Below, one piece after another: positions 4,531 through 7,555 of a stretch of 64,000 nt of DNA. The DNA is from a virus. Taxonomy: Duplodnaviria > Heunggongvirae > Uroviricota > Caudoviricetes. Numbering within the stretch: the stretch's first letter is position 1; each line of letters opens with the position of its first letter. A model generated the notes under the pieces. It made no database searches. It had not been told where the DNA came from and saw nothing but the letters and a program-made list of their open reading frames with translations. The DNA is taken from positions 2,082 through 66,081 of IMG/VR virus record IMGVR_UViG_3300038443_000660; one strand, written 5' to 3'. The translations under genes were made by a program, and so were the position numbers.

Positions 4531-5016
4531 ATGGCCAAAGAATTTAATCTACCACCAAACAAAAATGGACGATTCAAACAAGGTTATTTCAAACCAACGA
4601 ATCCAAAAAAATATGTCGGGGATATCAACTCGATTGTATATCGGTCCAGATTGGAACTTCGATTCTATAAATTTTTCGATTTGAGTTCGAATGTTCTTTC
4701 TTGGGCTTGTGAAGAATTCAAAGTCGAATATTTCTCACAGCTTGACGGTAAAGTGCATCGATATTTTCCAGATGCAATTATCAAAATCAGAACAAGGGGC
4801 GGTAAGGAAAAGGTTGTTATGATAGAAATCAAGCCCAAAGCACAATGCTTTGAGCCTAAAAAGCCCAAGAATGCTAATTCGAAACGTTACATCAGCGAAG
4901 TCATGACATATCAGAAAAACCAAGACAAATGGCAATCTGCCACAAAATTTTGTAAATCAAAAGGGATGGATTTCATGGTTCTTCATGAGGACTTTTTGAA
5001 GTCTTTTTCTGATTAA
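4531..5016 (+). CDS. gp4: Head completion protein gp4 (TnsA-like nuclease fold)
   Basis: FKQGYFKPTNPKKYVGD...IVYRSRLE...YFSQLDGKVHRYFPD...IEIKPKAQ...NQDKW. Confidence 0.92.
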   Translation: MAKEFNLPPNKNGRFKQGYFKPTNPKKYVGDINSIVYRSRLELRFYKFFDLSSNVLSWACEEFKVEYFSQLDGKVHRYFPDAIIKIRTRGGKEKVVMIEIKPKAQCFEPKKPKNANSKRYISEVMTYQKNQDKWQSATKFCKSKGMDFMVLHEDFLKSFSD

Positions 5017-5910: not shown

Positions 5911-6375
5911 TTATTCCTCTTTCGATTGCCATGCGTCATTCATGATAGTGTAATCGATAACCTTTAGAAGAACCGAGTCGAAATCGTCATCTGGAATTTT
6001 ACTCAATTCCTTGGCAAATTCCTTTTCATTTTCCGAAAACTCGTAACCTGCCGGGAATGAGAAACAACCGCCATTGTCTCCATCACCCCAACCAACTTCA
6101 AAAATACCAGCCCTAAAAATGGTCATCTGGGTATCACTGGTTGGCTGAGTCCAATACAGTCGAAGGAATTTGTTCCTTCCACCATATAAAGTTGCCCGCT
6201 GGTGATAGGCAAGCGGATTTTTCGTATGATGGACGATATTGTATTCTCGACCGTCACACATCATAAACTTTGTAACTTCGTTATTATACTTATCCTTCGT
6301 ATCTCGAATCTTCACCATACACAATGGGATTACACCGATATGACGAGACATAAGTTCAACATAACCAAAAGACAT
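5911..6375 (-). CDS. Hypothetical protein
   Basis: 154 aa, GGAG SD upstream, follows a sigma70 promoter. Confidence 0.65.
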   Translation of the reverse strand: MSFGYVELMSRHIGVIPLCMVKIRDTKDKYNNEVTKFMMCDGREYNIVHHTKNPLAYHQRATLYGGRNKFLRLYWTQPTSDTQMTIFRAGIFEVGWGDGDNGGCFSFPAGYEFSENEKEFAKELSKIPDDDFDSVLLKVIDYTIMNDAWQSKEE

Positions 6376-6409
6376 TCTTTAAAATTCTCCTATCACAATT
6401 CATATTTGT

Positions 6410-6452
6410 ATGGTATCACATCACAGGAAATTGTCAAGTAAAAACCTGTCAA
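6410..6452 (-). promoter_or_regulatory. Sigma70-type early promoter with duplicated -35 (TTTTACTTGACA x2)
   Basis: TTGACA(6437-6432)-N16-TACCAT; second TTGACA 15 nt upstream. Confidence 0.6.
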
Positions 6453-6580
6453 GTAAAATCTTCAAACTAATCAAAATATTTGTTAAGTAATATCAACACT
6501 TTACAAGATACAAGATAGGTGCGACAATCTGTCATATAGCCAAGATATCAATGTTTTGGTATGGTCTTCTTTATGCCGTT

Positions 6581-7070
6581 TTAACAAACGGCCTCACTTC
6601 GTTCAGCAATTTGTTAATATTCCTTCGGAATAGATATCCAATCAATAATAACAAAATATAGAATCAAATAACAAAACCTATTGAATCTAGGTAAACCATG
6701 AATCTAGCAATCAGTTATCAATAACAACAAATATTACATGTTTATTGAATTTCCATTCGCATTCGCTCATTCCAATTCAATAAATCTTCGATTAGTTATA
6801 CTTTATCTTCACTAACGTTCAGATAAAGTCTTTCAGATGTTCAAATTGTATTTTGGTAAAGATTCTGTAGAGAATATTGTGAGATTGTTATTGACAATAT
6901 AAAAATAGTAATCTATAGTGTAAAGGAGTAAATAATTTAAGATTCTTGTAAAGATTTCTTACAATAATTGAAAATTATATAAGTGCGCAAGCACTCTGTT
7001 ATTCTCACGCATAAAATAATATTTTATAGATGGCTTTCACTCACTTCGTTCGTTCAAACCATCTATAAAA
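6581..7070 (-). repeat. Four inverted-repeat hairpins with related tandem-GA cores in a 720-bp ORF-free gap; candidate origin or ssDNA signal
   Basis: Stems 6581-6617, 6741-6784, 6800-6829, 7022-7070; minus-strand cores GA-AC-GAA-GT-GA, GA-GC-GAAT-GC-GA, GA-AC-GTTA-GT-GA, GA-AC-GA-AC-GAA-GT-GA-GT-GA. Confidence 0.75.
6891..6919 (+). promoter_or_regulatory. Near-consensus sigma70 promoter with no convincing downstream gene
   Basis: TTGACA-N17-TATAGT. Confidence 0.55.
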
Positions 7071-7097
7071 CTTTCAGATTACAGTATAAAGACCAGA

Positions 7098-7466: not shown

Positions 7467-7555
7467 TTGTATATCACCCTATACCATTACATTTATAATG
7501 CAGCGCATTATGCACAGTTTCTTAATCGAGTCAAGTCCCTGATTCGGGATTTTCG

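Follow-up and report, generated by a model that had tools for sequence, protein, structure and literature searches.

Hairpins with a shared GA-zipper core in a duplicated non-coding module of a T4-type soil phage and in distant phages and bacteria

In a 64,000-nucleotide stretch of viral DNA (positions 2,082 to 66,081 of the IMG/VR record IMGVR_UViG_3300038443_000660; hereafter the window), we found that the four hairpins of a non-coding gap belong to a widespread class of self-folding palindromes, in which a variable, covarying outer stem encloses a nearly invariant core. This core, which we refer to as the GA-zipper, starts with at least one GA-RC unit, continues with a loop that G..A closes, and ends with the matching GY-GA units. 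The gap, at window 6376-7097, lies between two minus-strand open reading frames (ORFs) and is the longest ORF-free stretch of the window. The source contig, a 242,456-bp viral sequence from a soil and rhizosphere metagenome that is complete by terminal repeat, belongs to a T4-type myovirus. By analogy with known intergenic repeats, we suggest that the hairpins act as punctuation between expression cassettes, in the manner of repetitive extragenic palindromic (REP) elements or of the PeSL cassettes of T4-type phages, and we assign this reading a rough probability of 0.4. We rank the alternatives below it in the order of selfish or neutral repeats, a replication origin, and lastly a non-coding RNA.

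Four hairpins with tandem G.A pairs on one strand

A first-pass annotation of the window had described four inverted repeats whose interiors pair on the minus strand only, and we confirmed both their positions and this asymmetry. On the minus strand, each 5'-GA of an interior opposes another 5'-GA, and the resulting tandem G.A pairs alternate with 2-bp Watson-Crick steps, while the corresponding plus-strand positions are C.T/T.C mismatches. The hairpins, together with one that overlaps the last of them, are as follows.

7022-7070, minus strand: hairpin A, with an outer stem of 12 perfect bp (15 with one T.G) and the two-tier GA-zipper GAAC-GAAC-GAA-GTGA-GTGA.
6800-6829, minus strand: hairpin B, with a 9-bp outer stem and the interior GAAC-GTTA-GTGA.
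6741-6784, minus strand: hairpin C, with an 11-bp outer stem and the interior GGA-AT-GA-GC-GAAT-GC-GA-AT-GGA.
6581-6617, minus strand: hairpin D, with an 8-bp outer stem and the core GAAC-GAA-GTGA at 6594-6604.
6575-6592, minus strand: an alternative fold, GCCGTTT-GTTA-AAACGGC, with a 7-bp stem; it overlaps D at the 3' arm and is the minimum-energy fold of its stretch.

Hairpin A begins 27 nt past the stop codon of the upstream 122-aa ORF. In hairpin C, a G.G stands at the centre of each GGA/GGA triple. A 3-bp GCT/GGC stem, in which one pair is a T.G, closes the core of hairpin D, and the middle section of D contains T.G, T.C, and T.G; as in A, the T.G pairs of D exist on the minus strand only. 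The loops of A and D (GAA) and of B (GTTA) are each closed by C-G, and C has GAAT, departing from GNNA. The loop-closing pairs of A, B, and D are A-T plus C-G (ACG..AGT); GC-GC occurs only in C, in the counterpart of A in a second copy of the region described below, and in sister cores elsewhere.

Folding energies followed the same asymmetry. With RNA parameters, the GA strand was more stable by 2-10 kcal/mol (A: −21.6 on the minus versus −11.4 kcal/mol on the plus strand; B: −11.8 versus −8.2 kcal/mol; C: −11.6 versus −9.6 kcal/mol), and the full zipper was the minimum-energy fold of A (z −8.2). With the DNA parameter set, which carries no G.A bonuses, the asymmetry was only about 1 kcal/mol; the RNA parameters include tandem-GA terms. 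Hairpin D was the weakest of the four: its DNA fold was no better than that of shuffled sequences (z −1.1), and the RNA minimum-energy fold of its stretch preferred the overlapping hairpin at 6575-6592. The GA hairpins are beyond chance: a scan of the whole genome for at least 10 Watson-Crick pairs combined with tandem GA returned only B and its paralogue, with 0.1 expected in Markov shuffles. In total the phage carries about seven GA hairpins, all inside the two copies of the module that holds A to D.

Outer stems are kept as pairing and the core as sequence

The first-pass annotation had argued that structure rather than sequence is selected in these elements. This held for the outer stems, which covary, and failed for the interior, which is kept as sequence. 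The 12-nt core of B recurs exactly in many unrelated viral contigs, enclosed by outer stems that differ yet are complementary, and a 14-mer core gave 108 viral matches, 20 of them inside outer stems of 5-13 bp that were all mutually different. Across 17 distinct hairpins, 84.5% of stem cells were paired compared to 56.6% in shuffles (reached by 0/500), the covariation score was 0.665 compared to 0.13-0.18 for slid controls, and stem pairs that had not been used in selecting the sequences were paired in 14 to 17 of the 17. Between the related contigs L074 and L111, both sides of one stem pair have changed and the pairing is preserved. The outer stems are thus under selection for pairing. Wobbles within them (G.T versus A.C) offered only three informative mismatches, divided 1:2, too few to distinguish the two strands.

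The interiors were conserved to the letter over much greater distances. The 18-mer around the core of B occurs in four other viral contigs, including a complete 267-kb T4-type phage (IMGVR_UViG_3300045988_173416, hereafter G001) whose baseplate proteins are only 23-28% identical to those of the window phage. The 19-nt interior of A had 102 exact matches in viral contigs, in 43 distinct contexts, where fewer than one was expected by chance. The 18-mer around the core of D had no other match in an exact-pattern scan of viral contigs, and the interior of C no other exact copy there. Every loop seen across the family (GAA, GTA, GCA, GTTA, GATA, GACA, and others) has G..A and C-G as its closure, and lengths of 3 and 4 interchange freely. 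In four contigs (L301, L329, L350, and L384), the interior has expanded, microsatellite-like, into (GAAC)n-GAA-(GTGA)n with as many as about five tiers, and the 4-nt unit of GA plus 2 bp appears able to grow by slippage.

G001 contains five units of ~600 bp. A unit has two promoters, TTGACT-N17-TATAAT or GATAAT, that stand back to back and point outward; downstream of either comes a leader, and after the leader a GAAC-GTTA-GTGA and a GAAC-GTA-GTGA hairpin, the latter replaced in some arms by GAGC-GTA-GCGA, a compensatory change. The GA strand reads inward and is the template strand of the adjacent promoters. These quasi-palindromic cassettes lie at 62.9-63.5, 132.6-133.0, 162.6-163.2, and 190.4-191.0 kb and across the contig ends (e.g., L008:7380-8050); they occur in both orientations, mostly at gene-orientation switches, and a purine-rich tract comes after the hairpins.

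About 60 of the 102 matches to the A core belong to SSU5-type phage-plasmids, in which an A-type hairpin and, directly behind it, one of the D type (CCTC-GAAC-GAA-GTGA-GAGG) lie 112-170 nt upstream of rnhA. Examples are Salmonella phage SSU5 (NC_018843.1; L398:3797-3850) and an E. coli plasmid (NZ_CP117002.1, 90823-90880; L399). The pair sits in a 585-bp unannotated spacer with its GA strand antisense to both neighbouring genes, and the arrangement occurs in ~4% of complete E. coli genomes (232 of 5,426) and in 685 plasmid records. The SSU5 intergenic region as a whole folds only moderately better than shuffles (z −3.3). The polarity of the GA strand therefore varies among carriers, from the coding strand in the window phage to the template strand in G001 and the antisense of both neighbours in SSU5-type elements.

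A non-coding module is duplicated between unrelated genes

The hairpins lie in a module of ~530 bp (window 6515-7043) that recurs, inverted, at genome positions 160,952-161,424 with 69% identity (E 7e-51). The proteins flanking the two copies are unrelated, and therefore only the spacer is duplicated. Alignment of the copies gave a background of ~66% identity interrupted by blocks of perfect identity, which are listed here with the other features of the module and its downstream flank.

6801-6842, minus strand: 42-nt identical block around hairpin B.
6568-6608, minus strand: 41-nt identical block around hairpin D and the overlapping hairpin 6575-6592.
6684-6710, minus strand: 27-nt identical block containing the direct repeat CTAGATTCA twice.
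6999-7014 and 6983-6994: identical blocks (16 nt and 12 nt, respectively) at a terminator-like hairpin that is small and GC-rich.
6981-6996, minus strand: this terminator-like hairpin, AGTGC-TTGC-GCACT, with a T-rich tail.
6974-7002: promoter-like ATAACA-N17-TATAAT, overlapping the terminator-like hairpin.
6891-6919, plus strand: the best sigma70-type promoter match of the gap, TTGACA-N17-TATAGT (11/12), not kept in the second copy.
6410-6494, minus strand: a cluster of sigma70-type early promoters, with three ACTTGACA/ACTTAACA boxes and TTGACA-N16-TACCAT with an upstream TG.
5911-6375, minus strand: 154-aa ORF directly downstream of the early-promoter cluster.

Independent metagenome assemblies break exactly at the 41- and 42-mer blocks, over which read depth is doubled, and contigs from four soil and rhizosphere runs added no new variants, only breaks at these shared sequences. 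Hairpin C is found only in the window copy and is absent from the copy at 161 kb. At the position of A, the second copy has a different hairpin of the same layout, GAGC-GATA-GCAA, which starts ~25 nt past the stop codon of an unrelated upstream gene. The hairpin at 6575-6592 is fully conserved, and the terminator-like hairpin is kept through an A-T to G-C compensatory change. Hairpin D and the hairpin at 6575-6592 stand ~90 nt upstream of the TTGACA cluster; the order is the same in the second copy, which also ends in TTGACA-type promoters ahead of the next gene. Read from the upstream gene, the window thus presents a stop codon, a GA hairpin, the terminator-like hairpin, a spacer with B (and C), D, early promoters, and the next gene, and this succession of hairpin, terminator-like hairpin, and promoters is repeated at the second locus with unrelated genes. 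RNA made from the plus-strand promoter at 6891-6919 would carry the pyrimidine-strand version of hairpin A. At 6891-6924, this TTGACA-N17-TATAGT (plus) overlaps TTTACA-N17-TATATT (minus), the two facing apart and neither kept in the second copy.

The duplication also qualifies an earlier statement that this is the only long non-coding gap, which is correct for the window and incorrect for the genome, given the second module near 161 kb and other ORF-free blocks. The latter, outside the window, are at 68,178-68,686 and 124,038-124,512 (475-509 bp).

The pattern of conserved blocks could alternatively be that of a gene for a minus-strand non-coding RNA of ~340-390 nt, running from the TATAAT block at 6974-7002 to the hairpin at 6575-6592, of which B, C, and D would be parts and which would have a paralogue at 161 kb. 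Conservation at the ends and inside (B, the 27-nt block, and D), with diverged linkers between, resembles that of paralogous RNA genes, and a transcript would suit both the minus-strand T.G pairs of A and D and the much greater stability of the GA strand under RNA parameters. Nevertheless, we hold such an RNA to be very unlikely: its −35 element would be weak (ATAACA, or ATAATA in the second copy), it would end without a U-tract terminator, it has no match in Rfam, and the hairpin family as a whole is orientation-independent. For covariation outside the hairpins, the two module copies are the only sequences to draw on.

Bacterial sister elements form an interspersed intergenic family

A sister form of the hairpin, GTCAT-yCT-core-AGr-ATC, occurs in bacteria of distant phyla. 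Three genomes contained 99, 55, and 86 copies, equally on both strands, compared to 0 for a reversed-pattern control. In one Clostridia-class genome, 58 copies were classified: none lay in an ORF (0/58), 55 of 57 faced the 3' end of a gene, and 22 were in convergent contexts versus 2 in divergent ones. There was no bias to the gene-rich strand (20:18) or to the G-rich strand (29:26), nor to the sense orientation within tandem contexts (19:14). REP or terminator-zone elements are distributed in this way. No shared neighbour genes were found around the bacterial copies. A search for Y1/RAYT transposases (PF01797) gave no match in the phage, and none of the eight Y1 genes of three carrier bacteria had a GA core within 1.5 kb (0/8).

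At another locus (L262:4015-4181), a copy of the Flavo-1 RNA (RF01705) scoring just over the gathering threshold has a 96-nt insertion in its terminal loop, and this insertion carries a pair of GTCAT-type GA hairpins. We rejected the Flavo-1 match as a model of the hairpin itself; it is a host structure into whose loop the pair has been inserted. In Rfam 15, the gap otherwise gave chance-level matches only (E above 0.8), and the carrier loci, save for this host structure, gave none. In the literature, sequence searches met the consensus of the 36-nt Bpu element of cycad and Ginkgo mitochondria and otherwise just strings from primers or constructs, all unrelated.

Bpu has ~500 copies with AAGG terminal direct repeats and is described as mobile (PMC8297867, citing Chaw et al. 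2008). Its consensus folds like the window hairpins, with an outer stem followed by T-GA-GC-GTA-GC-GA-A, and its core CTGAGCGTAGCGAAG is also present among the bacterial copies of the GA-hairpin family. Bpu differs in being an organelle repeat with AAGG termini, and no AAGG direct repeats flank hairpins A to D. The likeness may reflect common descent or convergence on a stable fold.

The interspersed family bears on a reading in which the hairpins are selfish or neutral mini-palindromes, mobile or self-propagating and akin to REP elements, miniature inverted-repeat transposable elements (MITEs), or Bpu. They would build up in AT-rich spacers that tolerate them and would do nothing for the phage, and the core would be what a mobilising activity needs. 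We consider this rather unlikely. High-copy interspersion on both strands is what it predicts, and the bacterial preference for 3' ends over divergent promoter regions would look as if harmful insertions had been purged. It would also accommodate the hairpin pair inserted in the Flavo-1 loop, the presence of hairpin C in one module copy and its absence from the other, the layout shared with an element described as mobile (PMC8297867), and, through horizontal spread, the same core in phages of 23-28% protein identity. Nonetheless, the Y1/RAYT search found no mobilising enzyme, and no target-site duplications were seen. Moreover, B and D occupy the same relative positions in both module copies, within the identical blocks of 41-42 nt; these blocks extend past the hairpins, and the pattern looks more like conservation or gene conversion of the module than like independent insertions.

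Polarity and copy number speak against a priming signal

The view of a structured, strand-asymmetric element that no annotation or Rfam model names has stood, as has the background offered with it on C(GNA)G triloops in priming signals. C(GNA)G and GNNA mini-hairpins, including those with GTTA loops, are found at the complementary-strand origins of G4/St-1/alpha3 (the GTTA loop being that of St-1 and alpha3), at ssiA of RSF1010, and at N4 early promoters (PMC13037366). The further proposal of an origin, primase, or packaging signal found no support, because the sister family is a repeat of 55-99 copies that, in the one genome classified, has no leading/lagging bias and sits almost only at gene 3' ends, and because the GA strand differs in polarity among the window phage, G001, and SSU5-type elements. 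The polarity and strand data are not the behaviour expected of a single-stranded DNA signal specific for fork direction.

An origin role may be considered for the module as a whole. T4 has several origins, and the module could be one of several in the window phage, at which promoter-driven unwinding would expose the minus strand and GA mini-hairpins, left free of single-stranded DNA-binding protein (SSB), would recruit a primase or helicase loader. The gap is AT-rich (28.7% GC versus 38.1% for the window) and contains 14 promoter-like sites where 8.2 were expected, and the loop and G.A chemistry of the hairpins is that of the DNA mini-hairpins at G4/St-1/alpha3, RSF1010 ssiA, and N4 (PMC13037366). 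With primase-dependent signals of the G4 or ssi type, at which primers start at a hairpin on SSB-coated single-stranded DNA, this chemistry is all that the window hairpins share. The modules of both T4-type genomes are found where gene orientation switches from minus to plus, or a single gene away, and these switches coincide with minima of cumulative GC skew: both copies in the window phage are one gene from such a switch, with the 161-kb copy at the global minimum, and at least three of the five G001 units, each symmetric about its centre, are at minima. Among the tests made, it was only this position near orientation switches that spoke for an origin role of the whole module. However, skew minima in T4-type genomes are equally well explained by divergent transcription, and the position fits origins and divergent early-promoter hubs equally well.

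Other observations count against the origin. Seen from the switch point, the polarity of the GA strand is reversed between the window phage (coding, outward) and G001 (template, inward), and the bacterial sister family reaches ~100 copies per genome with no leading/lagging bias. The two loop-closing G-C pairs that a review calls essential for extreme stability (PMC13037366) are replaced by A-T and C-G in A, B, and D. Origins of the T4 oriF/oriG type have a MotA-dependent middle promoter followed by a DNA-unwinding element at which an R-loop forms; MotA (PF09114) and AsiA (PF09010) had no match in the genome, a weak point since control genomes were silent too. The conserved block does have TGCTT upstream of TATAAT, nearer the −10 element than in T4 middle promoters. 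Taken together, we judge an origin to be unlikely.

Comparison with known intergenic elements

PeSL cassettes are repeated elements of ~100 bp in T4-type genomes, located between the end of one gene and the start of the next, in which a stem-loop is coupled to early promoters of the sigma70 type; they occur in many copies, often with polyG/polyC stems, in hyperplastic regions, and flank ORFans (PMC2839356; PMC4122927). Their terminator activity was shown experimentally, and their identical stretches can mediate recombination (PMC2839356; PMC4122927). The window resembles them in pairing D with a promoter cluster and A with a terminator-like hairpin, so that a stem-loop is tied to an early promoter in a spacer. 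It differs in that the module is ~530 bp long and present in two copies only, where PeSL cassettes have ~100 bp and many copies, and in having four hairpins with AT-rich stems that share a GA-zipper core found far beyond T4-type phages.

REP elements are short imperfect palindromes, strictly intergenic, located at gene 3' ends and between convergent genes, and orientation-independent. The bacterial sister family shares with them its tens to ~100 intergenic, 3'-end-facing copies. The hairpins lack the GTAG tag of REP elements and showed no linkage to a cognate Y1/RAYT gene, and their GA core is conserved across phyla, phages, and an organelle, whereas REP elements are conserved within a lineage.

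The hairpins also resemble the DNA mini-hairpins d(GCGNAGC)/d(GCGNNAGC). As in these, the loop of A, B, and D is of the GNA or GNNA kind, with a sheared G.A pair and a C-G closure, and sister cores embed GCGAAGC, GCGTAGC, and GCGCAGC exactly. Unlike those mini-hairpins, A, B, and D have A-T as the second closing pair instead of a second G-C, and the window hairpins continue outward into tandem G.A pairs and a long outer stem. Known mini-hairpins are moreover single functional sites, in single-stranded DNA replicons or in N4, not interspersed families. REP-like repeats, PeSL cassettes, and DNA mini-hairpins are known kinds of element; the GA-zipper family, its breadth, and its use as a paired boundary in large non-coding modules of T4-type phages are undescribed in Rfam 15 or the searchable open literature.

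A proposed role as punctuation between expression cassettes

In the reading that we favour, the hairpins would fold in single-stranded nucleic acid, either the minus-strand transcript or transiently unwound DNA or both, and once folded would stop or buffer input from upstream by blocking read-through and 3' exonucleases, while also providing, in the two module copies, stretches of exact identity for recombination. We prefer it because the spacing between stop codon and hairpin (27 nt; ~25 nt) recurs at unrelated genes, because the terminator-like hairpin is kept by compensatory change with D ahead of early promoters, as in the PeSL layout of a stem-loop and then an early promoter (PMC2839356) and in the composite terminator/promoter cassettes of T4-type phages, and because only the non-coding module is duplicated between unrelated flanking proteins. 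It draws further on the selection of the stems for pairing, on the 3'-end placement of the bacterial sisters, which is like that of REP or terminator-zone elements, and on the greater stability of the GA strand with RNA parameters.

Several observations weigh against this reading. None of the GA hairpins has a proper U-tract tail on either strand, so they are not canonical intrinsic terminators, and we rejected that identification. In G001 the hairpins are downstream of outward promoters between divergent genes, where the early RNA contains the weaker pyrimidine version. In tandem gene contexts of phages, the GA strand was antisense rather than sense by 18:6, a soft figure since many of the contexts are related to one another, and divergent contexts were not avoided. 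A plain exonuclease barrier would leave unexplained an interior of 12-19 nt that is identical to the letter across phages with 23-28% protein identity. Lastly, the free interchange of GNA and GNNA loops fits the chemistry of DNA mini-hairpins better than that of RNA.

The invariant core may be read by a factor, or it may merely be the nucleus from which the hairpin folds quickly; no reading considered here accounts for its invariance. Since conservation of the core reaches well past that of the carrier proteins, something must preserve it, whether a reading protein, a copying mechanism, or the physics of the fold. A broader proposal, which we put forward as speculative and improbable, is that the GA-zipper hairpin is the recognition element of a cross-domain system that copies, moves, or processes the hairpin, with the core (GA-RC)n - G(N)1-2A - (GY-GA)n kept letter by letter among unrelated phages, phage-plasmids, and bacteria of distant phyla, and that large phages have co-opted it as a boundary element of swappable promoter/terminator cassettes. 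If so, these structured repeats would form a class of their own, newly recognised and served by a dedicated reader, much like the REP-RAYT system yet unrelated to it. Should punctuation be the correct reading, one stable hairpin design would be reused in T4-type phages, SSU5-type phage-plasmids, and bacterial repeats of ~100 copies. Identifying the reader would explain a common class of seemingly empty spacers in phage and bacterial genomes, and its identity bears on how phage gene cassettes are insulated and shuffled. While the soil phage is without a cultured host, SSU5-type elements in laboratory E. coli make the question experimentally accessible.

Genomic neighbourhood of the gap

The module is surrounded by baseplate and tail genes, including gp53-, gp48-, and gp26-like baseplate genes and a tail-tube gene, together with small ORFs without a family match; the latter include the 154-aa and 122-aa minus-strand ORFs that bound the gap. 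At blastn sensitivity, the gap had no DNA match among 50,697 phage records, and a search of IMG/VR by way of the hub protein found no close relatives of the phage. A further contig, L003, represents this same phage, with 100% identity over the gap. The nearest relatives (L004 and L005) have ~50-54% hub identity, and the module is absent from the syntenic place.

Two further features of the neighbourhood stand apart from the hairpins. On the opposite strand amid the minus-strand baseplate genes, a 161-aa ORF (window 4531-5016, plus strand) has a precomputed match to a TnsA-like endonuclease N-terminal domain (PF08722) and may encode a homing-type endonuclease; the relative L004 (~50% identity) has the same gene in the syntenic position. 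Upstream of hairpin A, TATAAATG occurs at window 7490-7497 on the minus strand, 24 nt ahead of the start of the 122-aa ORF. This is one letter off the T4 late-promoter consensus TATAAATA, and the 122-aa ORF may accordingly be a late gene.

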